Source of the DNA: an uncultured Planctomycetaceae bacterium
Lineage (GTDB): Bacteria > Planctomycetota > Planctomycetia > Planctomycetales > Planctomycetaceae
Assembly (NCBI GenBank): GCA_963815195.1
Contig: CAWFGE010000007.1
Location: forward strand, 1 to 64,000
Direction of reading: 5' to 3'
DNA: 64,000 nt
How positions within the stretch are numbered: position 1 is the stretch's first letter; each line of letters starts with the position of its first letter. Below, one piece after another: positions 37,980-58,340 of the stretch. The position numbers and the translations under genes were made by a program. Under the pieces are notes generated by a model, which was not told the DNA's origin, searched no databases, and saw only the letters and a program-made list of their open reading frames with translations.

Positions 37980-38890
37980 TTGCCCCAATCCATCCACAGG
38001 GACTGACCCGCGAACACATTTGCAAGCACTTGCCGACTTGGATACCGGCGCGAACCATCCGTTCGGCCAGCCCACCGGCTACGAATTGGTACACGACGGA
38101 AAGCGTTACGCCCCAAAGGCCGTGATCGGTTTGGCCTGCTGGGGCGGATTTTGGAACCGCAGGAATTTCGCGGCGGTGAGGCCCCGGGCAGGCGAATTAC
38201 GTGCTGCGACATTTGGGATTCGCCGTCGTCCCCAAAGGCGAACAGCCAGACGACGAAGGCCAGGAATCGCGGCAACCCTGGTCCGAAGCCGAGGTCAATC
38301 TGCTGGTTGCGGATTACTTCGACATGCTGCGGGCCGAATTCTTGGGCCAATCCTACAATAAGGCCCAGCACCGAAGGACGCCGAGTCCCCAGCTAAATGG
38401 CCGATCGGACGGTTCCATTGAATTCAAGCACCAAAACGTGAGTGCGGTGCTGGTCGATCGCGGGCTGCCCTATATTGAAGGCTACAAACCGCGGAGCAAC
38501 GACCAGGGCCTTCTGGTCCAGGCCGTGGACGCGTACCTGGAAAATCATCCCGATTTTTCTTGACCAAATTGCCAACAGCCCAACGATCGATCCACCCGGC
38601 GTCCCCAAAATCATCAGCCCAAACCCTGACCAGATCATCGAACCGCCGCCCGAGCAGATTATCGCCCCGCAATTCGACGGCAAACCGTTGCTGTCCCGAC
38701 GTGGTCGGCGGATCGATTTCGCCCAACGGGATGCCGCGAACCGGAGGCTTGGGAAAATGGGTGAGGAATTTGTCGTGCACCTGGAACGCCATCGCCTGCA
38801 GGCAATCGGCCGGGACGATCTGGCCCTGCGGGTCGAATGGGTCGCCCAGACCATTGGCGATGGGCTGGGCTTCGACATATTGTCTTTCAA
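37980..38890 (+). pseudogene. Putative restriction nuclease (McrA-like N-terminal head + DUF3883), truncated by the CRISPR array
   Basis: DGKRYAPKAVIGLA; WSEAEV..YFDML..SIEFKHQNVSAVL; LGKMGEEFV..GDGLGFDILSF, then repeat sequence in place of the expected EVK motif. Confidence 0.8.
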
Positions 38891-39265
38891 CGGGGCCGCG
38901 GTCATTCAACCGCGGAAACGCCATCTGTTGGCCGGCCGCAACACGCCAACCCTCTCCGCTTCAATGGGGCCGCGGTCATTCAACCGCGGAAACGGTACCT
39001 ATGGTCTCGTACCCTTGGACGCTACCGGAGTAGCTTCAATGGGGCCGCGGTCATTCAACCGCGGAAACTGCCTAACGAACAAATCCCAGGAGTCCAGACA
39101 CGCGCTTCAATGGGGCCGCGGTCATTCAACCGCGGAAACCCGGATACTCATAGTCAAAAGCAAGCTCCTGCTCGGTCGCTTCAATGGGGCCGCGGTCATT
39201 CAACCGCGGAAACAAGGAACTGTTGAAATGCCTCCGACGCAAACCGCGGCTTCAATGGGGCCGCG
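38884..39265 (-). CRISPR. Orphan CRISPR array with a type I-G(I-U)-like repeat: 5 full repeats, 1 half repeat, 5 spacers
   Basis: GCTTCAATGGGGCCGCGGTCATTCAACCGCGGAAAC (36 bp) starts at 38884 (3 mismatches), 38958, 39033, 39104, 39178 and 39249 (17 bp only). Spacers 38, 39, 35, 38, 35 bp. The minus strand ends in ATTGAAGC. Confidence 0.97.
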
Positions 39266-39390
39266 TGGAGATCGGCGTGCAATTGGGACCCACTTCGGGG
39301 GCAGGATCGGCGCGGAAAATGGACCCACCGTAGAAAACTTCGCATGCTACAGGATTGGAGGAGTCTGGTCCTGTTTCAGCGGAGGAGAGG

Positions 39391-40920
39391 ATGCTCACGG
39401 TGGACGATTATGCACGGATTCGTTGGGCTTATCGCGATGGCATGAGCCTCAGGGAAATTGAGAGAACATTTCATCACTCGCGAAAAAAGATTCGTGAGGT
39501 CTTGCGAGGCGCGGGCGAGCCGACGCCTTACGGCGGCAGCAAGCGGCTCCCCAATTGGGACGGTTTCACGATCGCATCCTGGAGATTCTCAAAGAGGATG
39601 AATCCGCGCCGCCCAAGCAGCGGCATACGCGGATGCGGATCTTCGAGCGGATCCGGGACGAAGACGGATACACGGGCGGCTATGATGCCGTGCGGCGGTT
39701 CGTGAACCGGCATCGGAAAAACCATGCTGAGACGTTCATCCCGTTGGATCATCGGCCCGGCCAGCGAATCGAAGCCGACTTTGGCGAGATTTCGGTGGAC
39801 TTCCCCGACGGTCGCCGGAAGGTCAACGTGCTGATCCTGGTCTGGTCGTACTCCAACCTTCCGTTCGCGGTGGCGCTGCCGACGCAGCGAACCGAAGCGA
39901 TCTTGGAGGGCATGACGCAGGCGTTTGATTTTTTCGGGTGTGTGCCGGAAGAAGTCTGGTGGGACAATCCGAAGACGGTGGCCGAGACGCTGTTGGCGGG
40001 GCGGTCGCGGAAGATCAACCCACGTTATCAAGCGCTCGCCAGTCACTATGTTTTCGATCCGCTGTTCTGCATGCCTGCGCGGGGCAATGAAAAGCCGGTG
40101 GTGGAAAACCGCGTGAAGACGTTGGAGCGGAAATGGTCCACGCCCGTGCCTCGGGTGAAGGATATGGAAGAGTTCAATGCTTATCTTCGCGAGTGCTGTT
40201 TGAAGGAACACGATCGCTGCAGCAGCGGCCAGACGCAAACGATTGGGGAGCGCTTTGCGGAGGAAAAACAGCGATCCGCTCCGCTTCCGGGGCCGCGGTT
40301 TGATCCCTGCATCCGGCAATCGGCGAAGGTCAACAAGTATCAGTTCGCGCGGTTCGACAACGTGAACTACAGCGTGCCTCGCCACGCCGCGTTTCAAACG
40401 GTGACGGTCAAAGGCTATGTGGATCGCGTCGAGATTGTGCTGAACGAAACCGTCATCGCCGTCCATAAACGGAGCTATCAGGCGGGCGAGGATGTGCTGG
40501 ATCCTTTGCACTATTTGACCACATTAACGCGTCGCCCGGCGGCTTTGGATCATGCGAACGTGTATCGCGATTGGAAGCTGCCCGCCGTGTTCGGCGAACT
40601 CCGCGAGCGTTTGGAAAGGCGGCACGGTCCCCACGCGGGCGTGCGGCAATTCGTGCGGGTGCTGCAGTTGCTGGCCGAGCATCCGCTCTCGCGCGTGCAG
40701 GCGGCGATCGAGCAACTTCGCGGCCCCGAAGGAGCCGATGCCGATCGCATCATTCGCCGCGTGGAAGCCTCCGCCCTCCGCCTGTCGGAAACATCGTCCG
40801 AGGGCATTTCCACTCCGATCGAGTGCGAACACCCCGGCGTGTTGTCGGTTCAAGTTCCCTGTCCGAGCTTGAGCCATTTTGACCAGTTCCTGTCCTCCTT
40901 CCAAGGAGATTCCGATTATG
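39391..40920 (+). CDS. istA: IS21 transposase (frameshift near 39540; end approximate, frame stays open to 41387)
   Basis: GMSLREIERTF HTH; PGQRIEADFG; WWDNPKT; RGNEKPVVENRV; NYSVP. Confidence 0.92.
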
Positions 40921-41276
40921 TCCCCGAACCCGAAACACGATGCCAACCAGATGCTCCTCAAGGCCAACCTCAAGCAACTCCGGCTGCCGACAATCCTGGC
41001 CGAGTACGAGAAGTTGGCCCGCGAAGCGAGTGCCTCGAACCAGACCTTCGAGCAGTACCTGCTCCGGTTGACCGAACTGGAGGTCGCGGCCCGGCAGACC
41101 AATGCCTTGAACAGCCGGATCCGCAATGCGAACTTTCCGGTGGAGAAGGGACTGGAGGATTACGACTTCCAAGCGGTGCCCGGCCTCCACAAACAAACGA
41201 TTTTGGAGTTGGCCCGCGGGGAGTGGATTGCCCAGCATTTCAATGTGTGTTTTCTCGGCCAACCGGGGACGGGAAA

Positions 41277-41677
41277 GGTCCGACCATCACAAGACACCTC
41301 TGGTCACTCAGTTATCGCGCGGTGAGATCACCGTCATCGATCCGGCCCATCCGCTTTATGGCCGAACATTTGATTTGTTCGGCTTAGCCCGCCTGCCAGG
41401 TTATCGTCAGTATTATCAAGTCGAGATTTTTCCTGACGAGATGACCTACATCGACGTCAGCAGCACGAACCTTTCCACCGCTCCTCCCCAAAAAACTTCC
41501 TGTCTGACCCTGGACGCGCTCCAGGATTTGGTGACTACCTTTCGGGATATTCTTTCTCGGAGGGAAGCCGATGTCACCCATTGCCACGGACCAGGTGTGG
41601 AACCGTCTGACTCTTCCAGAGCAGCAGCGGATCATCCAGCAAATCGTCGTCATTCTAACGGAGGAACTGGAGCATGA
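41277..41677 (+). CDS. Element ORF A; no ATG ahead of its protein-like N-terminal region in the integrated state
   Basis: SDHHKTPL..ITVIDPAHPLYGRTF..YIDVSSTNL..LTLDALQDLV. Stop overlaps the recombinase ATG (ATGA). Confidence 0.7.
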
Positions 41678-41855
41678 ACGGATCGATGAAAGTCAGCACC
41701 AGCCATTTGAATCGCCGCGGGATCGTATATCTTCGTCAGAGCACGACGAAGCAGGTCGAGAAAAACCAAGAGAGTGCCCACAACCAGCGAGCCTTGAAAA
41801 CCCGGTTGTTGGAGTTGGGGTGGAAGCCGGAACAAGTCAGCATCCTGGAGGATGA
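41571..41855 (+). CDS. Element ORF B, small helical protein overlapping ORF A and the recombinase
   Basis: RBS GGAGGG; MSPIATDQVWNRLTLPEQQRIIQQIVVILTEE. Confidence 0.55.
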   Translation: MSPIATDQVWNRLTLPEQQRIIQQIVVILTEELEHERIDESQHQPFESPRDRISSSEHDEAGREKPRECPQPASLENPVVGVGVEAGTSQHPGG

Positions 41856-43749
41856 TCAAGGGCAATCGGCCACGCAAACGGCGGGACGCGGGGCCTTTCA
41901 ACAGATGGTCGCCGACGTCGGCTTGGGTAAGGTCGGCATCATTCTGGGCTATGAAGTTTCACGGCTTTCCCGCAACGATGTGGATTGGCATCGACTGTTG
42001 GAATTGTGTGCGATCTTTGACACACTCATCGGTGATGTGGATGGGTTGTATCATCCACGGGATTTCAACGACAGGCTCCTCTTAGGCTTGAAGGGCACGA
42101 TGTCTTCGGCAGACTCCATAGCCTCCGATTGCGATTGGACGCGGGTCGATTGTCGAAGGCCGCGCGGGGCGAGTTGGTGCAAAACTTGCCGACGGGCTTG
42201 GTCCGCAATCTGGACAAGACGGTGATGCTCGATCCCGATCTGAGCATTCAAAAGCGATTGCATTTGGTGTTCGACAAGTTCGTGGAGTTGGGCACGATTC
42301 AAAAAGTCTTGACGTTCCTGGCCAAGAAAAATTTGAAGATTCCCCGGCGCCAAGTTTCGGGCCTTTATGCGGGCGAAGTGTTTTGGAGAGAAGCCACGGC
42401 CGCTTCGTTGGGCTCGATCCTGCATAACCCGGCTTATGCAGGCGCGTTTGCTCATGGGCGTCGGCAAGTCGATCCCACGCTACGAATTCCCGGTCGTCCT
42501 GCCACGGGTCGCACGCGCCGGCCCCAAGCGGAATGGTCGGTCTTAATTCCCGGCATCTACCCGGCCTATATCAGTTGGGAGCAGTACGAAGACAACCAAC
42601 GCCGAATCGCTCAAAACAACCTCCGCATCCAACAACGACTCGCCGCCAAGCAAGCCATCCGCAACGGCTGCGCGTTGTTAACGGGCTTATTGCGCTGCGG
42701 AAAATGCGGTCGAACGATGGGAGTGAATTACAAGGAGAACCGCTTTCAATACTCATGCAATTCTGGCTATCGGCATTACGCCCAACGATCCTGCCAGTAC
42801 TTGGGCGGCAACAAGATCGACGAGGCGGTGACGGAAGCTTTCTTTGAAGTGCTGCGGCCTGCCGAGATCGATGTGTTGGAGAAACTCTCCGCCGAAAGGG
42901 CTCGCACGCATGCGGACGTGGTTCGGCATTTGGAGCAAGACGTCGGGCGACTTGCAATACGCCGCCCATCGGGCCGAGCAACAATACGACTGTGTCGATC
43001 CCAAGAACCGTTTGATTGCGGCCAGTCTGGAAGAGAAATGGGAATCGGCTTTGTTGGCGCAAAAGCAAGCCGAAGAAAACCTGGCGGATGCCCGCCGAGA
43101 AATTCCCCAACCGATCCGCGTACCGAAGTCCTTGCGAGACGCCTTCGCGGATGTCGGGCGGCAGCTTCCCGAACTCTGGCCCGAGTTGTCTTGGGAGGCG
43201 AAGAAGTCGTTGTTGCGGACGATGATTACGGGAGTCAATCTTCACCGGCAATCGGATGGGCTGGTGCAAATTCGCATGGTCTGGGCCGGCGGTTCGGTGA
43301 CCGAAACGTCGGCTCTCCTACGGCGTTTTTCAATGAAACACACGGACTTGGAAGAGCACATCGTGGAACGCATCCGGCAAGAAACCAGCGAAGGCCGGTC
43401 GAGTGAAATGATCGCGGCGGATCTCAATCGCGAAGGCCATCATCCCTGTCGTGGCGAACAATTCACCTCGCAAATCGTGAACAAGTTAAGACATCGCTAC
43501 CGGATCAAAAGCCCGCGTGCAAAGAACCTGCCCCATGCCTGGACCGCCGCGGAAATGGCTCAGGAAATCGGGCACAACATATCCTGGATGTATCATAAAA
43601 TTGAGCAAAGACAGATCGTGGTTTCTGTCGATCCAACTTATCGGTGCTATCTGTTTCCCAAAACTGAGGAGGTTAAAGACGCCATGCTAAAACTCAAAAA
43701 TCACGAAACCGAGCAAATCACTATCCCAAGGGGGCACAACAATGGCTGA
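41674..43749 (+). CDS. Large serine recombinase (2 frameshifts)
   Basis: IVYLRQST catalytic Ser; EVSRLSRN; RLLLGLKGTMS; ILHNPAYAG; zinc ribbon LLRCGKCGRTM..YSC..SCQ; coiled coil VDPKNRLIA..LEEKWE. Confidence 0.93.
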
Positions 43750-44470
43750 GTCAAAACTCATATCAGCATTGGATTGGGCCTGGCCGCGTGCCGAGCGGGT
43801 TATAAGACCAAGTTCTTCACCGCCGCGGCTTTGGTGAATCGCCTGGAAGAAGCTCAGAAACATTACACCTTGGAGCGGTTGTTGAGCCAACTCGACAAGC
43901 TCGATTTGTTGATCGTGGATGAACTGGGTTACTTGTCGTTCAACCGGTCGGGAGCAGAGTTGTTGTTCCAGGTCTTCGCGGATCGCTACGAACGCAAGAG
44001 CCTGCTGATCACGAGCAACCTGGCCTTTAGCGATTGGGGGCAAATCTTCCAAGGCGAACGCATGACCGCGGCATTACTGGACCGCATCACGCACCATTGC
44101 CACATCTTCGAGATGAACGGCGAAAGCTACCGCTTCAAACAGTCGATGAAAGACAAAAAAGCGTCCGAAAACAAGAAGCCGAAAACCCGCTAAGTCGGCT
44201 CCGACGACGCCCGTCTTTCCTTCCCAACCTGCCCCATTCCACATCATTCCCCACCCCAGGTGGGTCCCATTTCCGCGCCGAAGTGGGTCCCAATTGCACG
44301 CCGATCTCCAGGCGTTGGAATGACTTAAAAACAAGGGGATTTGAAGCGGTTACGCTCTCGCTTCGTTCATACTCGCATTGTATTCATGTGGGGGTGATAT
44401 GGCCACGGGTGTTACCAAATTGTTACCAAAGTTTGAGATTCCACCGGACCAATGTCGCCGCTGGCATCCT

Positions 44471-45189
44471 CTAATACTCCCAATTCTCGTGACGCACCGG
44501 CAGGCGGTTTAGCACCTGTCGCCGGTGTTCCCAGTCGGGCATATATTTTTGCATAAGCCCTTGGAATCTTTCGTTATGTGTGGGTTCGAGAATGTGGATC
44601 ATCTCGTGGACGACGATGTACTCAAGGCATTCGCGGGGCTTCTTGGCCAGGTCGGTGTTCAGCCGGATCGTTCGTGCCTGTGAATTACAGCTTCCCCAGC
44701 GCGTCTTCATTCGCTGGACGTAGAAGCCACAAACGGTTACGCCGATCCGTGGCTCCCACTTTTCAATCAGTTCCTGGGTTGCAGTCTTTACCAGTGCGCG
44801 ATACCAGTTCTCGACTACCTGCTGCCGCTTGTGGTCGTCTGCAGCCTGGCCTGAGCGCGCAGAATCATCTGATTATGCTTCAATTCAATGGACGGCGAGG
44901 CATTCTCCTCGATGATGCTGAGTAGGTGTCGCTTGCCCCACACGAAGTGGCTTTCGCGACCGACGAACTCGCGGGGAGTTTCGCGCTCTTGCTCGCGGAG
45001 TTTACGTTGCTGCCGTTTGATCCAGCCCAGTTTGGAAATCGCAAACAGCCGGATCGTATCAACGTTCATTCGCTTCGGAGCCGCAATGCGGACCTTGCCC
45101 TCCGGCGGATGGACGCTCAGGTGGATGTTCTTGATGTCCTTGAGCACCACATCCACGGCAATGTTTCCAAGATCAATCGTCGTGGCCAT
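44471..45189 (-). CDS. M48/YgjP-like metallopeptidase associated with type I R-M (frameshifted)
   Basis: KDIKNIHLSVHPP; MKTRWGSCN; LEYIVVHEMIH. Confidence 0.9.
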
Positions 45190-48100
45190 CAGTATTCCGC
45201 CTGTGCTTTGATGATGAGGAAGATTCGTTCGACCTCGGCCTCGTCCTGAAGCACGCCGTAAAGGGCTGCTTTTATGACTTGTTCGCGGGCTTGAACTCCA
45301 CGCCAGCCATCGGGACGGACTTTCTTCACTGCGTCGTCGATCTGCAAGGCAAGCTCTCTCATTTTTGCCAAGGTTGTTGAATAGAGTGCGCGCTTGCCTG
45401 GCGTGTCGAGTTGTGCGGGCGTGTCCTCTGCCTGGCCGGCGTCAACCCTCTTCGCGAGTTCCGCAATGCGTTTCAGGTACTCTTCGTACTCGATGGCTTT
45501 TGCTTTGCGGGCCGCGATGATTTCGTCGAGCAGCGCCGACATGTTCGCGTAGAACGCGGGATCGTTCAGTTGCTCCTTCGTGATCTTTTTGCGGACGTTG
45601 TTTTCGATGGTCTCGGCAATGGCGTTCTTGTTGCCCTTCAGCCCGCCCAGCTTCGTGGCGATGGCATCGGCAATGCCCGTCTTCACGATCAATTCCAGCA
45701 AGCCCATGTTGTCAAACGGCGAAATCTTGCGTGGTTCATCGGCCTCGATGTAGGTGTCGATAAGGTGCCGCATGTCGGCTTCGTAGGGCTTGAGGTCAAG
45801 CGTCTCGCCACTGGCATTGCGGATGATCTCACGCAGCTTCAGGTATCGGTCGAGCAGTTGCTTGATGTGGGCAATGTCGGATGTGCTGTAACCCGCCTGC
45901 TCCAACTCGTCGGCAATGTTGGCGTAGGCACGAACCAGGGCTGACAACGGCCTTGTAGAGCGCTGCCCGTTGCGGCTGGCGTTCCTCCAAATCGCTCGGA
46001 GTCTCGGTGTTACCGCAGAAGTAGTGGATGTGCTCCAGTTCGCCTTGCGGTGGCTCCACCGGCTCGCATAAGAGGGCAAGGGTTTCGATGGCATTGTCGA
46101 GGCGTTCCTTACCTTTTTTCAGCCGATCCTGAAGCAGCACGTCGGGGCTGGCCCCGCCGGAACTGGTATCAAGTTCTGACGTATACACGGCGATGGCGTT
46201 TTCGACCTTCTTGAACAGGTCCTTGTAGTCCACGATGTAGCCGAAATCCTTGTCCTCACCGTCAAGCCTGTTCGTGCGGCAAATGGCCTGAAACAGGCCG
46301 TGGTCCTGCATCGACTTGTCGATGTAGAGATAGGTGCATGGCGGCGCATCGAAGCCGGTGAGCAGCTTGTCCACGACCACGAGCAGCTTCATGTTCGCCG
46401 GCTCTTTGATGAACAGTTCCTTGGCTCGCTCTTCGTAGGTCTCCGTTTTCGTCATGCCGGGCTTGGCGTCAACATTCTTGAGCAGTTCCATGTAAGTGTT
46501 GTAGATGAATTGCTTGTCCGTCTCCGTATTCGCACCGACTTCTTCCTTGGTTACGTTCTGGGCCTGTGGATTGTAGGAGGTGACAATGGCGCATTTGCCC
46601 TTGAAGGGCGTCTTCTGGAACAGCGTGAAATACTTGGAAGCCTCGTAGATGCTTGAGGCAACAAGGATCGCATTGCCTCGCTCGCTGGAAAGGCGGGGCT
46701 TCACGCTGAAATCGAAGACGATGTCCGCGACAACACGGTCCATCCGAGACTTGGAACTGAGCACCGACTGCATCGTGCCCCACTTGTGCTTCAGTTCATC
46801 CTTCTGCCAGTCATTCAGGCCTTTCGTCTTGGCGTCGAACCAGGCATCGATCTTATCCTCGGAGCCGAGCCGTTGGTCGATGTCTCGCGCTTCGTACACG
46901 AGGTCGAGCACGACTTCATCCTCGACGGCCTCGCTGAACTTGTAGGTGTGGATGTACCCGCCGAAAACTTCCCGGCTGGTCTGCTTGTCTTTCTTGAGCA
47001 GCGGCGTGCCGGTGAAGCCAATAAAGACGGCGTTGGGCATCATCGCCTTCATGGCCCGGTTCAGCTTGCCGCTTTGGGTGCGGTGGCATTCATCGACGAA
47101 CACGAACAGTTCGCCTACCGTCTGGCTCGGCTGCGATTCCAATTCCTTGATGAAAGCGTCGAAATCGTCCACACCCCTGCGGCCGAACTTGTGCACCAGG
47201 GAGCAGAGCAATCGGGGTTTTGCCTGAGCCAAGTTGCTTCATCAAGTCCCGGCCGCTGCTGGTGCGTTTGATGGCTTCGCCTGTCTCGGTGAAGACGCGC
47301 TCAATCTGCCCGTCCAAGCTCGTCGCGGTCGGTGATGATCGCGACGCGGGCGTTGGGGTTGTTCTCCAGAATCCATTTGGCGAGCAGCACCATGACGATG
47401 CTTTTCCCGCTGCCCTGGGTGTGCCAGATGATGCCGCCCTTCTTCTGCCGGACATGCTCCTGGGCGGCCTTGATGCCGAAATACTGATGCACGCGGGGCA
47501 GCTTCTTCACGCCGCCGTCAAACAGCACGAAATCGTGCATCAACTCGATGATGCGGTGCTTGTCGCAGAGCTTGAGCAGGTACTTGTCCAGCTTGAAGCG
47601 GGTATTGTCTTCCTCGTCTTCTTTCCATTTGAGGAAATACTTCTCTTCGGTCTTGATCGCTCCATATTGCAGGCCCTGCGAATCGTTGCCGGCGAAGACG
47701 AATTGCACAGTGCTGAAAAACCACTCGTTGAATTCAGGCTGCTGGTTGGACAGATTCTGGCGGATGCCGTCGCCGATGGTGACGCGGCTGTTCTTGAGTT
47801 CGATCACGCCGATGGCAATGCCGTTGACGTAAAGCACGAGATCAATCCGCCGCTCCAGGCCGCCTTTGAGGGTCACTTCCTCGGCAATGGCGAAATCGTT
47901 TTCTTCTGGCTTTTGCCAGTTGATGAGGCGGACGGTCTCGGTCACCTTGCCGGCCTCAATCTTGACGGGCACGCCATAGCGAAGCAGGTTGTAGACGGCC
48001 TGGTTGTTGCCGTAGAGCGTGCGGTTGTGGTTGTCGGCCTCGGTGCGCAGCTTGTAGATCGCCGCGCTGATCTGTGCCGGCGTGTTGCCCTGTTTCGTCA

Positions 48101-48242
48101 GCCAAGCGGAAAGCAGGTCTTCCTCGATGTTGCTGTTGGTGCGGTCCGTCCAGTCGCCGAGATAGCGATACTTGAGTTCGTCCTGAAACAGGGCGAGAAC
48201 CCGGTCCTGCGTGGCGCGTTCAGGTTGGCCGATGTTGCTCAT
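45189..48242 (-). CDS. hsdR: Type I restriction subunit R (frameshifted)
   Basis: IDLVLYVNGIAIGVIELK; IWHTQGSGKS; VDECHR; GFTGTP; LLTGFDAP; QAICRTNR. Confidence 0.95.
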
Positions 48243-49599
48243 TGCATAACCTCCCAATGACCGCCCTTGGCTGGACCGACCCGTTGCAGCTTGCCTTCTG
48301 CCGTGAGTTTTGCTGACCGCTCGTTCGACGGCGCTCTGGGATTTGCCAATGCTGGCAGCAACATCCGCCAAGCTGTAGTCAGGATGCTCGGCCAATACTG
48401 CAAGAATTTTCTCCGGCGTTTTTACCCGCGTTTTCACCGGCGTTTTCACCTCAGTTTCCCCCAAATTTTCGGCCGATTCAATCCGTTTCACAATGTCCGA
48501 AGAAAACGGGAAGGAAATCCACAATCCCGCCGGTTCCTGCTCGATGATGGTTCCGGGAAGCGGGCTTCACGGCAGGCGGCAAAAATCCGTTCGACGCCGC
48601 GTCCCCAAGCCTCGATCTCTCCCGCTCGAAAGAAGATGTTGGCAATATCGGGATTAAATGGGAGCGAAGCATGTTTGCGTTTGAGCTTCGCCACCGTCCA
48701 GGCCTGAGGAAGCTGGCCGGGGTTCCAAACCATGAGTTTATCCGCATACACGCTGATTTGCACCGGCGTGCCGCTGGCATAATCCTTATGAATAATCGCA
48801 TTCAGAACGGCTTCGCGGAGAGCCGGTTCGGGCACGGGGAGCGTTTCAACCCGCTGAATGCCCTGATAGGTGATGGCGGCTTTCAGGTATTTGGTCAGAA
48901 GCAGGTCGATCGTGCGGCTGACCTGCGTAAACAGGTCGCCGTGGACTTCATCGTGATAGAGCAGGTCGTCATTCGTGCGGAAATAGCCAATCTTCACGAA
49001 AGCGCCGGTCACGAACTTTTCCGGATCGGGATGAAAGGCCAGCACGGCGGCACGTTTAAGGTAGTTTCCCATCGTTCAGATGCAATTTTTCGATGAGACC
49101 GGCCGTCGATTCTTTCAGGTCAGGCGGCGGTCATCCGCTGGCTTTGCCGCGCCCGCGTGCGAAACGCTTCGATGGCGTCCTTCGACAAGTTTCGTGCCGT
49201 GACTTTGGGCACGGGCACGCCGTCCCAGGTTCTGCCCTGCTTGGCGAGCAGGAATTTGTCGAGGGCGGCTCCTTTGAGTTGCTGTTTGGTGCTGCCGGAA
49301 CGAATGTGGTACTCCCCCTTGTAATTCACCGGGTAGGGGTACGGATCGACGTGAATTTCGATCAGGTCTTTGCGTTTTTCGGAAACGAGCCGCACATTGG
49401 CCATGATGCCCAGCACGTCACGGATTTTGTTCGGCAGGTCCTCAAGCAGCTTTTTGGCGTCCGCAACACCGATGGCTTGCCCCTTGTCGTTTCGGCCGAT
49501 GACCAAAACACCTCCTTCCGCGTTGGCAAAGCCACAGAGCCATTTGAGGTACTCATCCCGCCAGGACTCTTTCCATTCGGTGTGCTGACTTTCCTTCAT
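48239..49599 (-). CDS. AlbA_2/Schlafen-like DNA-binding + ATP-binding protein with C-terminal wHTH (frameshifted)
   Basis: ESQHTEWKESW..FANAEGG; LREAVLNAIIHKDY; EAWGRG; GPAKGGHWEV. Confidence 0.88.
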
Positions 49600-50896
49600 A
49601 CCAGGCGAATCCTCCCGGTCAGCAGTTCCTGCATCATGCCCTGCTTGATCTGGCGGGCCTTGGACAGCTTCGTTTCCAAGTTCGCGATTTCGGCCTCCAT
49701 GTCTGAGAGGATCGGCGGCGATGGCACGTTTGTTCTTCGGTCGTTGGCAAGGGAATGACGATATTCCGAAACGACGCACCGGCGAACTACGATGCTTTGG
49801 ACATGTCGTGCCAGCTGCGACGACTGCAAGTGATTCGGTCACGGCGTGAAATGACTCGAAATGCAGACGTAGTCTGATATCATTCGCAGAAACGCCTTCG
49901 ATGTGCATTGCTGCAAGCCATCGCCGAAGAGCATGTTCACGTCAATTGAGTAGTTGGTGCTTCTTCAATGTCGAGCTTCCACGAACGCATAACAAAAGAT
50001 CACCAGACTTGCAGAAATCGTAGCTCGCGGCTTGATCGCGATAGTCCATGAATCGTAGAATGTGGATCGTCAGTTTCGAGTGAATTTGACGTCAGCCGTA
50101 TGAATCCAGTGGTATTGTTCGCACCTGTCCGATAGTCCGTGGTTCCGCGGCGACTGGTGCCATTCCACCGACTTCACCGCAAGTTCGCCGAGGAGCGTAT
50201 TTCCCACTCCCCGCTGAAACCCGGCAGGCGTTTCTTGCCGGTGAGCAATTCCTGCATGGCCCCTTGCTTGATGTCTCGCTTCTTGGCCAGCAGTTGCTCC
50301 AGTGACTCGATGAGGGCATCGGCATCACTCAATACCTCGGCAATGGCTTCCTGCTCGACCTTGGTCGGAGGCAGAGGAATTGGCATTGCGTTGAGTTTGT
50401 CCCTGCTAAGTTTGCATGCTGCCTGTCGATCCTGCCGCGACACTCATGAAGTAGCCACGACCGGCAAAAACTATTGGCATATCTCCAAAACCACTGAGCA
50501 ACAATCCTATCCCGAAAGCGAAGCCGCATCATCAGGTCGGGATAAAATAACTGTGTGCCAGCGCGGTGAAGATTGCAGTCGTCCCCACTAGATCAATCGT
50601 ATTGGAGCGTTGGACTAAAACGTCGTCTGGCTTAAGAAATAAATCTGACTCTGGAGAAATACTCTGTTCAATATACTTCACGGTGTCCTGATTGAGAATG
50701 AGCTTGCCTGATGTTGTTGCAGAAAGACTGAGTGTGGGTGTGCCGACAGCATCAGCACCGCTACGACCCGAGTATCCATTCTTAGGGCCACTGCGAACCA
50801 ACTCACCGACTCTTCAAGAATATCCCAGTCGAATGGAATTACGCCAACTTCAGTCTGTTTATATCCACTTGGAATGTCGTGCGTCGCCGTGCTCAC
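49596..50896 (-). CDS. hsdS: Type I specificity subunit, heavily disrupted in the second TRD
   Basis: GYKQTEVGVIP; EQEAIAEVLSD..KQGAMQELLTGKKRLPGF; KQGMMQELLTGRIRLV. Confidence 0.85.
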
Positions 50897-50915
50897 GATC
50901 CCACCTCCGCGAGCT

Positions 50916-53324
50916 TCAGCTTGAGGGGCCGAAGCCCATGCGTTCCAAGTCAGCGGTGACTTTGTCCTCCAGTTCCGCGACGCGGTCGGCGATCTGCGGG
51001 AATGTCTTTTCGTAACGCTCGGCAAGTTGCTTCACCCGCTGCGTGAGTTGCTGGCTTACCCGATCCATCTCGCCGTGAATCATGGCATCCAGCGCGGCGA
51101 GCCATTTGTCGTCCACGACCAGCGTCTTGATCTCCGCCTCGGTCAGCTTGGGATAATTGGCGTAGGCTTTGGCATCGAGGTCGGCTTCCGCCTCCTTGAG
51201 CTGCTTCTTCAGGTCGGCCTGCTCGCCGTTCAGCTTCAGCCACTCATTGAGCACGGCGGCTTCGTCGGCTGCTTCCTTGTCGCCCTTGATCTCCTTCAGC
51301 CGCGCGGTGACGTTGCCCTTGTTGATCTTGTCGAGTTCGGCAAATGCACCTTCTTCGCCGCTGTGTTCCTCTTCCAGTTCGGCGAGCTTGGCGGTGACGG
51401 CCTCCAGTTCGGCGGCGAGTTGGTCGATGGCGGCCTGCTCCTTGGCGAAGTAGCGGGCGACGATCAGGGACTTGGGAATCAGGTCGCAGGTCCAGCCCTT
51501 GTCCTTCTCCTTGCCCTTCTTGTCCTTCTCGATGATGCGGTAGGTCTCGGCCTTCCAGCCGTCGGCGGCGATCAGGTAGCAGTCGTCCTGCATGGTCTCG
51601 CGCCCAGTAATCCATCAGGTGCTGGTAGACGTCGTAGGGGTCGATCAGCGGCTTGCCGGCGTAGTGGGCAAGCAGGCTCTCGGAGAGCTCGGCGATCACC
51701 TGCTTCGGGTGGCAGCCGGCTTCGAGCGCCTTGAGCGATTTCGCGCTCTCGTCTCGCCAGTCGGCGAAGTGGGCGTTCATGTCCGTCGATGAAGGCGGCG
51801 AATTCGGGATGCTCGTAGATGGTGGTCTTGATGTCGGCCTTGTCCACGGCAAGGTCGACGTAGCCGGGGCGGTTGTGCTTGAAGAGCGCCTTGCGCAGCT
51901 TCGGGCAGACCTCCCAGTAGCGCTGCAGCGCATCGATGTCGGCGACCGGGATGCCGCCCTGCAGGTGCCCTTCGATGTCCTGGATGTCTTCGGCCTGCTG
52001 GCTGTCGATATAGCGGGGCAGGTTGAGGTTGAAGTCGTTCTTCTCGATCTCCTCGAAGCGGACCATGCGGGAGTAACCGGGAATCTCCAGCTGCTTGTTG
52101 AAGACATCGACGATCTTGTGGATGTCCTGCGAGCGCAGGCGGTTCTTGGGGCCGTCCTTCATGAAGCCCTCGCTGGCGTCGATCATGAAGATGCCCTTGC
52201 GGGCCTGGGCGTCCTCCTTGTCGATCACGACGATGCAGGCGGGGATGCCGGTGCCGTAGAACAGGTTGGCCGGCAGGCCGATGATGCCCTTGATGTAGCC
52301 CTTGCGGATGAGGTTGCGGCGGATGTCCGCCTCGGCGTTGCCGCGGAACAGCACGCCGTGCGGCAGGATGCAGGCGCCCTTGCCGGTGCTCTTGAGCGAG
52401 CGGACGATGTGCAGCAGATAGGCGTAGTCGCCCTGCTTGCCGGGCGGCACGCCGAAGGGCTTGAAGCGCTCGTAGCGGGTCGTTCGAGCGGATCGAGGCC
52501 GGTGCTCCAGCGCTTGTCGGAGAACGGCGGATTGGCGACGACGTAGTCGAAGGTCTTGAGCGCGTCGCCGTCCTTGAACTTCGGGTCGGCCAGCGTGTTG
52601 CCCTGCATGATCAGCGCCGTCGGGTTGTCGTGCAGGATCATGTTCATGCGGGCCAGGCCGCTGGTGGCGGCATCCTTCTCCTGGCCGTAGAGCGTGACCT
52701 TCGGTGCCGGCCTCGTCGCCGACCTTCAGCAGCAGCGAGCCGGAGCCGCAGGTCGGGTCGTAGACGGTGGTGGCGGCTGCTGGTCTTGGCGTCGCGGATG
52801 CCGAGGATCTGCGCCATGATGCGGCTGACCTCGGCCGGGGTGTAGAACTGGCCCTTGCTCTTGCCGCTCTCGGTGGCGAAGTGGCGCATCAGGTATTCGT
52901 AGGCGTCGCCGAGGATGTCGTCGCCGTCGGCCCGGTTCTTCGAGAAGTCGAGGGCCTTGTTCTCGAAGATGGCGATCAGGTTGGTGAGCCGGTCGACCAT
53001 CTCCTTGCCGCTGCCGAGCTTGCCGGCGTCGTTGAAGTCCGGCATGTCGGAGAGCTTGTTGGCGTTGGCGAGCGGCGCGATGATCTTCTTGTTGATCTGG
53101 TCGCCGATGTCGGGCTTGCCCTTGAGCGCGACCATGTCCTTGAAGCTCGCACCCTCGGGGATGGTGATCGGCGCGTAGGGCTGGCCGGCGTACTTGTCGC
53201 TGACGTACTTGATGAACAGCAGCACGAGGACGTAGTCCTTGTACTGGCTGGCATCCATGCCGCCGCGCAGCTCGTCGCAGCTTGACCAGAGGGAGGAGTA
53301 GAGTTCGGATTTCTTGAGTGCCAT
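50916..53324 (-). CDS. hsdM: Type I methyltransferase subunit (frameshifted)
   Basis: LRGGMDASQYKDY; GQFYTP; VVANPPF; PHGVLFRG; LPANLFYGTGIP. Confidence 0.95.
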
Positions 53325-53383
53325 GCGTCAGGATACCGTTCCGATGGGTTGGTGTGATTGAAAGCTGAGTTATTCAGATCGTA

Positions 53384-54240
53384 TCAGTTCTTGCGACCTT
53401 TCTTCTTCCGTTTCGTCGATTTGGTTTCCGCCGGTTTTGGAGTGGCCGACAATTGGGCAACCGGTTGTTGCCCAATGGGTTGGTCCCCTTCCAGTTGCGA
53501 TTGTGATTCCGCCAGTTCGTAAAACTCGTGCAGTTTGGCCTGAAGCAAGTTCTTGTCCGGCAATCGGGTTTGATATTCGGCGACGAGAGCCGGCGAGACG
53601 GCCCGGCTCAAGGCGTACTCGACGACTTCGTGGTTCTTGGTGGCGCAGAGCAGCATGCCGATGGACGGTTGCTCGTGCGGTTTTTTCACGTCCCGGTCGA
53701 GCGACTCCAGGTAGAATTCCAGTTTGCCGAGATATTCCGGCTCGAATTCGTTGATCTTGAGTTCGATGGCGACCAGGCAGTTCGAGCGCCCGATTGAAGA
53801 ACAGGAGGTCGATGGCGAAATCGCGTCCTCCGACCTGCACTGGGTACTGGCTGCCGACGAAACAGAAGTCCCGGCCGAGTTCGATCAGGAATTGCTTGAG
53901 ATTCTCCAGCAGCCGCTTTTTGCAGATCGGCTTCCGAATGTCCAGAGGGAAGCTCCAGAAACTCAACGAGATATGTGTTTTTGAAGGCGTTTGCAGCGTC
54001 AGGAAAATGCTGTTGCAACGGTGGCGACTGCTTCGGAGGCGACAGCACGACCCGCTCGAACAGAGTCGCCGTTCAATTGTCGCTCCAATTCCCGACTGGA
54101 CCATTTTTGCGAAGCGGCGAGCCGCAGGTAGAATTCGCGTTCTTCGTCCCGCTTGCACTTGCCGAGAATGAGCAAGTTGTTGGTCCAACTCAATTCTCTC
54201 AGCAGTGCCGAGAGTTTCGGCTCCCGAATGAAAACCAAAC
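53384..54240 (-). pseudogene. YhcG/PDDEXK nuclease-domain protein, 5'-truncated and frameshifted
   Basis: LSWTNNL..EREFYL..WSSRELERQ; FLIELGRDFCFVGSQY; IDLLFF; VVEYAL..VAEYQ. Confidence 0.82.
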
Positions 54241-54480
54241 GACAGGACGAGTTGCCTCTTGCTATCATCTGCATGGGTTTGCATCACATATCCTATTCTA
54301 AAGGATTCCGAGGCGGGGAAGCGAGGTGTCGTCGAGAAGAAGACGAGCAGGAGAAAACCTCCCCCGCCCACGGTTCGCAAATGCCATCGTTGGTGGCTGC
54401 TCATCCCGGTCTTGTTCGCATTGCTGCTGGTGGCATCCCGAATGGGAATGATTGGAATTGATTGGCAACGAGGTCATTTG

Positions 54481-55380: not shown

Positions 55381-55565
55381 CGTTGTTCCTCCCGAATCGG
55401 GATTTCAGTGAGGTCAGGGTTTCGCTCGGACCCGTCAGACTGCCCATCCTGCGGAGCGGCGGTCCTGATCCTCTCTGGGTATAGTATGGATCGGACCAAA
55501 AGTCCTGCAACCCTGCAACATAGGTATTGACAAACAATAGTATTTTACGGACAACTCGCGCCGCT

Positions 55566-58340
55566 ATGAGCGGTGCAAACTCGACATACGAGATTCGATT
55601 GCGTGCGGTACGTGCCGTTCTGGATGAGCATATACCTATTACGACGGTCGCACAAGCCTATGGAGCCGATCGGACAACGATCTATCGATGGGTTGTGCGT
55701 TATCAGGAAGCCGGAGACGACGCAGGTCTGGTACGTCGCCCGGTAACCGGTCGGCCTAAAAGGCTCACGGAGGTTGATGCCGAGGCACTGCGGACTATCG
55801 TCCTTGCGCCGGCATCTGATTATGGCTACGAGACTGACTTTTGGACAACACGACGACTGTTGCAAGTAATTGAGAGTGAATTTCGAGTCAAGCTATCAAA
55901 CCAAACCATCCTTCGCCGACTGCACGCGGCCGGTCTCCGCTACCAGAAACCGGAACGCGAGTATTTTCAAGTTTCCGAGCAGGAGCGGCAAGCCTGGGCT
56001 CGGAGGGAAGTCCCGAGAATTCGTGCCGCGGTCCACAAAAACAGGGCCATTTTGAATTTTCAGGACGAATCGAACATCTCATTGACCGCATTGTTGGGAA
56101 AGACCTGGGCACCCAAAGGCAAGACACCAAAGCAGGCTGTCACTGGAAAACGCGGGGGCGTGGCTGCTATGTCGGCAATCACCGGACGAGGTGGACTCAT
56201 TTTCCGACTTCATCAGCCCGGATTATTCATCAGGTCCGTGCGTGGTGAGTATTTCCGTGGCGGAAAGTGCACAGGGTGGTTGGGGAGCGGAGGATGGGCG
56301 GACCGCCCCCTTTCCCCCTGGGGCCTGGCGATCGTTGGGTGAGTGAAGGAAAGAAACAGAAAGGCGGATGCCACGATGGCGAACTGCTCAGTCCCGAAGA
56401 ACCAGTTGCTCATGGGCGTGACGTGGGAGAGGTGTGTAGGGCCGCGGGCCAGCTCCACGCGGACGTGGCCAGAGGTTGGCCAGGCGCAGCGAGCGGATGC
56501 GGGAAGACATCGCTGCCCAAAACGCGCGGACGCTTTCCTCAATGTAAATCACCAGGCGGCGGGAGTGCTTCGCCACCCGCGCTCCTGTCCGCAGCACCGA
56601 CTGCTGGAAACGATGCAAGTCCCAGCAACCGCCCAACTCGTCCTCGAACTCGATCCGCAGCATCGACGCCAGGTTGAACGCCAGCAGGCCCAACAGCAAC
56701 GTCACTTCGTTCTCCGCAAACACCGATGACGAAAGACGGCAGCCAATCACCGCGTTGAATTCGCCCAGCCGGTCCTCGAACGTGCCGCGCTTGCGGTAGT
56801 GCGACAACACCTCATCCGCCGAGCGTTGCTCCTCGGTCCAGTTTGTGATCAGGAAGAAGTAACGCGGAAACAGAGCCAGTTGGCCCGTCTTCGCCTCCGG
56901 CTTGTCGACGATGACCAGAATCACCCGCTGCGGATGACGCCAGCCCTCGGCTTGGTACTTTCCGAGTTCGATCACGTCCTCATATCCCCCTTTGGGCGGC
57001 CGGCCCGCGGGACGTGTCAGATAGGGCGCGGCCATCTCTTCCAGCACGTTGTTCTTCTTGATTCTCCCGCAAAAACGGATGTTTTCGTCGGTCAACTCAT
57101 CCAACACCGGGCCGGCGATGAAACCCGCATCGATCCGGAGGTCGAAGCTCCACGCCAGTTGCCGGGCCTTGCCGACCACGTTGCGAATAAACCGCCGGAT
57201 GCCATTGGCCGTATGCACGCTGCCTTGCCGCAGGATGGCATGAATGAAGCCGTTCCCCAGCCGCTGGCCTTCCCGCGTGCCGTCGTAGTCGCCGCCGACC
57301 GAGAAACTAGCGACCAGCGGATGATAGACGGTCTCCTTGTAGTAACCGTTATAGCGGGCCCCCGGCTGCTGGCCATAAACCTGCATCGGGAAACTGTCGA
57401 TGTCGATGGTGGCGTAGCGGACGCGGCGGTCGCTGTCGCCGGTGCTTTTGATATGCCGATGGATCCAGTCGAACAAGGCGCTCCGCACGGCCTCGAGATT
57501 CGTCTTGCAGTCGGCCAGCCAATCGATGAGCCGGGATTGAGTGGGTTGGCTGGCCAGGCGTTGGTTGAGCACTTCTTCGCCGGGCCGGTCCCAGGCGGCC
57601 ATCTTCATGGCGGGATCATGGGCGAGCCGGTCGAGATCATCCTGATCGGACTCTCCCAGGGCCATGGCGTAGATTCTTTCCCGCAGCAGTTCGACGCCTT
57701 GATAGCGGACGCGGTCTTGCCGGCGAGGATCGATCAGTCGATCGGCAAGGGATTCGGTGAGTCCGAGCCGATGATCGAAGTCCCGCAGCAGAACGGCACC
57801 GGAGTGTGACGTGAGCCGCCCATCGACGGCCTTGACCTTGATGGAACGATTGAAATCGGGCTCGAAAATGTTAGGCTGAGCTTCACCCATCGCGTGATTC
57901 CTCCGTTTGGTTTCGGGATTGCGGTATACCCCTTAAACGCAGAGGGTCACGCGATGGTTCCTTCTTTTTTCATCTTTTTTGGTGAATAATCCGGGATCAG
58001 AAGCGAATCGCATCCGAGGAGGTCATCGACGTTTTAAGGCAGATGTTAAAACATCATCCAAGGCGTCATTTGGTCGTGGTCATGGATCAGGCACCGCCTC
58101 ACACATCGAAACGGACCAAGGCCTATATGGAAAACCAAAAAAGACTGCATGTATTTTATCTGCCCAAGTACTCTCCTGACTGGAATCCAGATGAAAAGGT
58201 ATGGAATCATTTGAAACATCAGGAGCTAAAGAGCCATCAAGCGAAAACTAAAGACGAACTCCATCAGTTGGCATATGAAAAACTCATGGCGATGTCAAAG
58301 AACAGTTCATCGTTGAGAGGCATATTCTTCCGATGCTCAA
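55566..58340 (+). mobile_element. IS630-family transposase gene interrupted by IS1380
   Basis: HTH TIYRW; FWTT; FQDES; after the insert VVMDQAPPH..LPKYSPDWNPDEKVW. The frame rejoins as RLHQ|KRIA. Confidence 0.92.
56217..57995 (-). mobile_element. IS1380-family element; transposase 56388-57890
   Basis: Terminal IR CCCGGATTATTCA; 5-bp TSD ATCAG (56212-16 and 57996-58000); motifs LTSHSGAVL, LASQPTQSR, IDIDS, RIDAGF, YRKRGTFE. Confidence 0.95.

Follow-up and report, generated by a model that had tools for sequence, protein, structure and literature searches.

Large serine recombinases (LSRs) join an attachment site on a mobile element, attP, to a site in its target, attB, by recombination through a 2-bp core. 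Among the nearest described systems to the one reported here are integrative and mobilizable elements (IMEs) of Firmicutes, whose serine integrases place them in genes of Tn5252-type integrative and conjugative elements (traG, SNF2 helicase, and Maff2; PMC5704250). How does a locus compare in which the target is an insertion sequence (IS)? We analyzed a 64,000-nucleotide stretch of DNA ("the window") from an uncultured Planctomycetaceae bacterium (GenBank assembly GCA_963815195.1, contig CAWFGE010000007.1, positions 1 to 64,000), in which a 2.5-kb LSR element interrupts the istB gene of an IS21 insertion sequence. Like the IMEs, it is inserted by an LSR at a specific site within a conserved gene that belongs to another mobile element, and its direct repeats are very short; IMEs too sometimes use two sites within one gene (PMC5704250). 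Unlike it, they carry mobilization or replication genes and target conjugative elements (PMC5704250), whereas this element has three genes, lands in IS genes at codons of catalytic motifs, and has one of its own genes split across attP. We give a probability of about 75% to the reading that it is a minimal, non-replicating integrative element—orf1, orf2, and the LSR—that parasitizes IS21 elements.

A second comparison is with TnpX of Tn4451 and Tn4453, which at about 700 aa is similar in length to the element's LSR; Lyras and Rood reportedly described, in 2000, a promoter formed at the circle junction of a TnpX element. The features held in common would be a 2-bp core, a circular intermediate, and an expression signal at the circle junction; TnpX, unlike the element, is described as needing no directionality factor and as using many GA sites (PMC5704250). 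The junction here would instead create a translation start and a complete cofactor gene, and insertion is aimed at a specific codon. An attP inside a gene, so that integration alters a frame encoded by the element, is known from SSV-type integrases and the repressor of mycobacteriophage BPs; there the integrase or repressor is cut, whereas here the start is removed from a putative directionality cofactor. With the phage LSRs that work with a recombination directionality factor (RDF; SPbeta SprA/SprB and phiC31 gp3, PMC11722253 and PMC5814800), the element shares domain order, a 2-bp core, and a symmetric attP, as well as a small partner whose C-terminal helix is modeled to contact the zinc domain and coiled-coil base. 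It differs from them in having no phage genes, in a partner that is SH3/KOW-like and predicted to be made from the excised form only, and in a polarity that may be reversed. Diverse LSRs are also described as converging on a conserved site within one protein family, an ATPase gene among them, as in the clusters that target Mg-chelatase/ComM (PMC10083194). In that survey transposase activity was not enriched among LSR targets (6/1069 vs. 2/908, false discovery rate 0.37); istB is absent from its text, and istB and IS21 are absent from eight of its supplementary files (PMC10083194). Full-text literature searches, with subscription journals and ISfinder outside their coverage, returned no LSR insertion into istB and nothing on DUF5372, and the IS-parasitic form of the LSR integrative element is apparently undescribed so far. 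The gene names y4bA and y4pH, of NGR234 genes that stand beside an istB fragment, do not occur in the papers returned.

The host insertion sequence, IS21-A, has the genes and ends of its class: istA, for a DDE transposase, and istB, for an AAA+ protein, lie between terminal inverted repeats of 37 nt that are 97% identical. Host and insert are laid out as follows.

39266..44310, + strand: host insertion sequence IS21-A, with TG..CA ends; 2,567 bp when empty
39391..40931, + strand: istA, DDE transposase gene, frameshifted; Pfam rve and Mu-transpos_C_2
40918..41276, + strand: 5' half of istB, ending with bases 1 and 2 of the Walker A lysine codon; Pfam IstB_IS21 2-105
41275..41276, + strand: left core dinucleotide AA (attL crossover)
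41277..43754, + strand: LSR mini-element, 2,478 bp counting one AA; 55% GC; at least nine copies in the genome, at least 99.5% identical
41279..41677, + strand: body of orf1, DUF5372-like, with a predicted SH3/KOW-like barrel and C-terminal helix; its stop overlaps the LSR start
41571..41855, + strand: orf2, short conserved helical peptide, whole when integrated
41674..43749, + strand: LSR gene; Pfam Resolvase, Recombinase, and Zn_ribbon_recom
43728..43734, + strand: purine-rich, ribosome-binding-like site for orf1
43728..43752, + strand: orf1 start region at the right end, with the first codons including the ATG
43742..43744, + strand: ATG of orf1, overlapping the last LSR codons
43753..43754, + strand: right core dinucleotide AA (attR crossover)
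43755..44193, + strand: 3' half of istB; Pfam IstB_IS21 105-236

The only duplicated sequence is the AA of the istB Walker A lysine codon, 2 bp long, and a preliminary description of this DNA had correctly placed the insertion in that codon. Its further claim, that removing the insert restores the istB frame, also holds in silico: without 41277-43754, the exact insert, istB reads for 265 codons with Walker A intact and no internal stop, and the two flanking halves match adjoining parts of the Pfam IstB_IS21 profile. The gene content of the insert is one LSR and two small open reading frames (ORFs). There is no relaxase gene in the 2,478 bp, which contain orf1, orf2, and the LSR only; no search for an oriT was made.

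The element is a genuine member of the LSR integrative elements. Its LSR gene carries two frameshifts in the window copy (near 42113 and 42950), which we regard as errors or lesions of this copy because other copies and contigs of sequencing runs lack them: the gene is intact, at 691 aa, in three of eight aligned genome copies (C12, C15, and C18), neither frameshift is present in run X1, and the first is missing from X3 and the second from X2. On the intact protein Pfam finds PF00239 (residues 17-167), PF07508 (197-315), and PF13408 (335-389), and residues Y19, R21, S23, C342, C345, C362, and C374 are invariant among 58 homologues. DUF4368, carried by 63% of the TnpX/TndX-like multi-targeting LSR clade (PMC10083194), gives no match at E values up to 1, and the low specificity of that clade is not seen here. 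IS607-family serine transposases are described as having domains in inverted order and a minimal specificity for their targets (PMC4058570); this protein has its catalytic domain at the N terminus of 691 aa, and its target is fixed. Past the zinc domain, residues ~555-691 form a C-terminal extension without a Pfam match, which is possibly an extra DNA-binding module; PF12728 is present in 7 of the 120 homologues listed.

Is the Walker A codon a true target? Junctions were located across the genome assembly with anchors just inside each element end. All nine left junctions found lie at the istB Walker A lysine codon—one codon of one gene family—each after GGN-AA, and all seven right junctions found resume istB at R-Thr/Ser. 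The occupied hosts are three different IS21s (A, B, and C), whose 52-bp target sites have only 27-30 bases in common; between hosts A and C the IstB 3' halves share 32% identity. Next to K-T/S, on its downstream side, each of the four right-flank types has a His or Asn codon, which is an istB-type feature. Junctions of the element with all three hosts are also present in contigs of runs X1-X3, of which X1 may be the source sample. Because the LSR uses conserved istB Walker A codons as attB, it has many landing sites, and this part of the preliminary description stands for the three hosts here and for the same codon in homologues elsewhere. The comparison with empty copies that it had suggested gave a divided answer: empty relatives of host B (contig C9, 96-98% identical) and host C (C23, ~89%) carry a single AA, but the assembly offers no empty IS21-A, and all five left and all four right IS21-A halves in the genome adjoin the element. 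Because every assembled copy of one IS21 is occupied, the element may limit IS spread.

Seven copies of the element have both ends. Three of these have flanks from different hosts, either through recombination between copies or through misassembly, so the copying history is blurred. The copies carry mosaic single-nucleotide polymorphisms (SNPs) in conflicting patterns, unusable for a copy genealogy, and several contigs break at element ends. On one contig (G000:C12:939-6437) the order is the left part of IS21-C, the element, the right part of IS21-A, and the tail of IS21-C; this is either what would be left if DNA between two copies of the element in nested ISs was deleted, or a misassembly. 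As to the host transposase, istA in the window has a 7-bp deletion near 39529 that shifts the frame and leaves a first frame of only 104 codons; the deletion recurs in run X1 and in one other genome copy, and istA is frameshifted in two IS21-A copies, the window's included. The istA of the copy at C8:28205 is open for 640 codons. In the window no stop closes the istA frame where istB starts, and the frame continues through the istB 5' half (39391-41387). Target-site duplications are an expected feature of IS21; none surrounds either complete filled IS21-A (the window copy and C8:28205-33257), which suggests later rearrangement or misassembly. The preliminary description held that the ATPase activity of IstB is needed for efficient IS21 transposition, and IstB is described as essential for it (PMC12486865).

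How widely is this codon used beyond the genome? A protein search gave a list of 120 relatives with identities of 54-99%, most of which lie on short contigs; scans of sequence collections with generic patterns kept 80 + 80 loci of about 600 each, mostly distant relatives; and further DNA context came from searches of 301, 401, 5, and 121 genomes and four plasmid regions. At eight loci (L035, L036, L195-L198, L216, and L231) the LSR is 52-70% identical to that of the element. The clade of the element and the close loci has FastTree support of 1.00 (SH-aLRT 100 on a subset), in a quick tree that left out L216 and L231, whose genes are broken, and on which we base no claim about a donor or the sequence of events. 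For close homologues (LSR identity at least 52%), 12 of 13 visible junctions lie at the AA of the istB Walker A lysine codon, the exception being the right junction of L231; the preliminary description had proposed this check on homologue insertion sites. A sister group follows at 39-50% LSR identity, with nine loci that are too short or could not be resolved. At four loci of this group, L037, L045, L115, and L118 (LSRs 40-44% identical), both junctions lie at the same Walker A lysine AA. Across LSRs 40-70% identical, the codon is targeted in Planctomycetia, Chloroflexota, and metagenome loci.

A first screen gave an IstB match at 22 of 164 loci, of which 12 were interruptions. More distant members of the family use other addresses. 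With LSRs at 33-41% identity there are four further istB sites: after an FP motif near codon 75 (L200 and L201); two codons ahead of the Walker A lysine, the element being reversed (L123, L135, L137, L139, and L168); at a TSN/TSQ motif (L167); and at the istB-C Pro codon after Walker B, the site in this genome of a second, distant LSR mini-element (2,601 bp, CCC core) with copies on contigs C14, C16 (G000:C16:86800-88511), C18 (29475-30720), C19, and C21. On C16 and C18 the two elements stand consecutively within one istB-C; a single istB can therefore carry two elements of different kinds. A quick tree of 39 rows requires seven changes of the istB target label, at least five of them forced by starred branches. 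Other genes split by family members are istA, IS3-like, IS66 tnpB, and DDE_5 transposase genes and group II intron reverse transcriptase genes. Complementary Pfam halves on both sides were found at 14 of 48 loci, which is not a family-wide rate because the loci were preselected for a mobile-element-like flank; many family flanks have no Pfam match, and a few match housekeeping families.

Individual loci show further variation. L045 (2888-3408) and L047 have an extra helix-turn-helix ORF, located past the LSR stop and short of the right end, with which the L045 element is 3,234 bp long, and L164 and L165 are two family members in one Wolbachia chromosome. L231 (G411:C45) has its left junction in istB Walker A, and its LSR gene is itself split by another LSR element in reverse orientation; the flanks of L031 and L206 also hold LSR or resolvase halves. 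A single-protein query of viral contigs found no relative.

What is formed when the two ends meet? In the rebuilt attP of the window element 12 of 28 positions are symmetric (shuffle P = 0.03, weak alone). Over nine homologous elements the symmetric matches number 130 vs. 68 expected, with 0/5000 shuffles reaching 130 and the peak at offset 0 only, and the imperfect inverted repeats that the preliminary description saw in the attP arms are confirmed. Both arms read CCA at positions 8-10 and T(G/A)CnC at positions 17-21; the left arm of attB has CC at 8-9, from a P-loop glycine codon, and we infer that this CC mimics the attP motif.

The joint also completes a gene. At the left end orf1 has no start codon in its first 32 codons; at the right end are a purine-rich site and, 13 nt short of the joint, an ATG. 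Joined through one AA, the ends give a 137-codon orf1 frame whose stop overlaps the LSR start. An orf1 frame crosses attP at 16 of 17 loci with mapped junctions, with differing cores and targets, and an ATG or GTG stands 12-18 nt before the joint at 15 of the 17. Among 207 loci the orf1 profile matches 64 and the orf2 profile 111 (the orf1 match is weak at L168), and the orf1 stop overlaps the LSR start, at offset 0 or +3, in 21 of 65 orf1 matches. Residue W10 of orf2 is invariant in a 60-row alignment. Read-in from istB was considered as a source of Orf1 and rejected: the left-junction -1 frame belongs to istA rather than to orf1, and where the insertion is antisense there is no such read-in.

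The product of orf1 is DUF5372-like. Pfam gives no DUF5372 (PF17342) match for the window orf1 and weak matches, under the cut-off, in two of six scanned homologues (E = 0.042 and 0.00028); the Atlas feature score is 0.94, with 223 of 256 features common to a DUF5372 cluster. The predicted fold is an SH3/KOW-like barrel plus a helix (pLDDT 89), for which a fold search returned no specific relative (best Z 6.5, rmsd 2.9, 60 aligned, SH3b-like) and Foldseek nothing at E < 0.001. A model of the Orf1-LSR complex scores 0.74, against 0.01 for the best of three controls; of 157 solved complexes 116 attain the mark applied, as do 2 of 215 mismatched pairs, although with own alignments these counts are only rough guides. 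Contacts agree by at least 77% between runs, the partner pLDDT is at least 70, and the modeled interface sets the C-terminal helix of Orf1 on LSR residues 341-346, 393-409, and 481-544. Orf1 is predicted from this model to bind the zinc domain and coiled-coil base of the LSR, the directionality-factor site. In SPbeta the C-terminal helix of the RDF is described as packing between the zinc domain and the coiled-coil inter-hinge region (PMC11722253). The split gene, its predicted LSR binding, and the family's many other mobile-element targets are absent from the preliminary description.

How might such an element live? At the level of sequence, the target codon, the 2-bp core, the use of several hosts, and the split gene can be regarded as established. 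By established LSR chemistry, the element would excise to a circle, restoring istB exactly, and attP × attB integration would follow. The circle joint would carry a symmetric attP and would fuse the right-end ribosome-binding site and start to the left-end orf1 body; by the logic of the genes, Orf1 would be made from the circle only, translationally coupled to the LSR. We think the balance tips slightly toward a scheme in which Orf1 from the circle switches the LSR to integration—the reverse of phage integrases—and the integrated form excises, with the LSR acting alone or with Orf2. The argument for an integration-promoting Orf1 is that a co-translated excision factor would strand a non-replicating circle. 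The element would gain a target that exists in many copies and is mobile in its own right, that the cell can do without, and that selection on the P-loop at the protein level holds constant; it may plausibly also travel as cargo of its host IS, with IstB provided in trans. A larger generalization we advance only tentatively, at rather less than even odds: that there are widespread, unnamed, IS-sized LSR hyperparasites that use catalytic-motif codons as DNA addresses, that set direction by DNA state through a circle-made integrase cofactor, whose lineages partition one host gene (five istB sites, two at once), and whose copies rearrange and shuffle their host ISs.

Several observations weigh against the reading of a targeted, circularizing parasite. 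The assembly contains no attP circle, tandem copy, or empty IS21-A, and contigs of runs X1, X2, X3, and X6 contain no circle joint or empty IS21-A, although contigs drop rare variants, so that this is not evidence of absence. Four intact istB Walker A sites in the genome are unoccupied (C10, C15, and two on C14). The right junction of L231 (52% LSR identity) lies in a lysine codon of a tyrosine-recombinase gene, just before its HxLR motif, and L163, of the sister clade, splits an integrase-core gene; L231 also has only a farther ATG, with no standard start at -13, and L167 has no clear orf1 fusion. The pass of the Orf1-LSR model may echo likeness to solved LSR-RDF structures, and factors that bind this LSR surface, in the RDF literature, favor excision (PMC5814800 and PMC11722253). 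This last point runs against the proposed polarity. If Orf1, modeled as it is on the SPbeta RDF-binding surface, were an ordinary excision factor made by circles only, a rare first excision would block re-entry of that circle and trigger the exit of other copies, a positive feedback that would restore istB in many host ISs together. We consider this unlikely: given the stop/start overlap in 21 of 65 orf1 matches, any LSR made on the circle would be accompanied by a factor that bars integration, which would leave an element without a replicon at a dead end, and circle-junction expression in other elements is described as serving the integrase (PMC13023037).

The preliminary description had favored a reversible off-switch for IS21 that hitchhikes, and a reading in which the element is such a switch and spreads mainly inside its host is, on the present data, a rather poor bet. 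Precise restoration of istB on excision would suit it, and the element beside every IS21-A half is what copying of the filled IS as a unit would give. Yet matching target duplications are lacking at both complete filled IS21-A, the element SNPs are mosaic, mixed flanks blur the history of three of the seven complete copies, istA is broken in two copies, and neither an empty allele nor a circle was seen in the assembly or the run contigs. Hitchhiking and reversible silencing of the host IS21 may occur. It is more doubtful still that LSR specificity is relaxed to any Gly-rich P-loop/lysine context, with insertions in cellular ATPases purged by selection. The small overlap among the three attB sites (27-30 of 52 bases) and the L231 junction in a tyrosine-recombinase gene speak for such relaxation, and many non-istB P-loops score 21-23/26 on a learned pattern, as do unoccupied istBs (the learned-pattern scan is circular for the two empty relatives). 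Against it, none of the nine left junctions is at a non-istB site, although a census of the genome counted 321 P-loop-like sites, many in redundant ABC or AAA genes and none occupied outside istB; His or Asn follows K-T/S in every right-flank type; and 12 of 13 close-homologue junctions are in istB. A single historic insertion spread by gene conversion or assembly collapse, without targeting, would account for copies at least 99.5% identical, mosaic SNPs, and contigs that break at element ends. We find it scarcely credible, as it is already refuted by the homologue junctions: the hosts are three and unrelated (IstB 3' halves of A vs. C 32% identical), the junctions recur in independent contigs, and LSRs 40-70% identical use the same codon in other lineages.

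On the preferred reading, of a minimal integrative element that parasitizes IS21, the locus would add a layer of parasitism inside insertion sequences, in which protein-level constraint on a P-loop preserves a DNA landing site across unrelated transposons. DUF5372-like proteins gain a testable role, and a serine-integrase directionality that is inverted and gated by circularization could be tested directly here. In annotation, such insertions probably lie behind many of the pairs in which an istB pseudogene stands beside a "recombinase family protein." Genome engineering might also draw on an LSR this compact, whose attB is degenerate and defined by codons.

Planctomycete-specific domains encoded in the window, and the names of two homologues, point to a planctomycete as the host. 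The surroundings of the host IS record other rearrangements. Beside IS21-A lies an orphan CRISPR array (38884-39265) of five full repeats and a half repeat cut by the IS, which begins at a repeat-like 7-mer inside a gene. That gene, which we take to resemble DUF3883, has no Pfam match at E 1e-5. Elsewhere in the genome (G000:C15:142273-142634, - strand) a six-repeat array with the same repeat and a leader is followed by the apparent 3' half of the DUF3883-resembling gene, and the two arrays resemble the reciprocal products that a single crossover within a CRISPR repeat would give; no spacer has a self-match over 20 nt. On the other side, a type I restriction-modification cluster (44818-54473, - strand; HsdM, HsdR, and YgjP-like), with many genes frameshifted, also includes a Schlafen/AlbA_2 gene and a YhcG nuclease, and two transposase genes follow it at 55524-57932.

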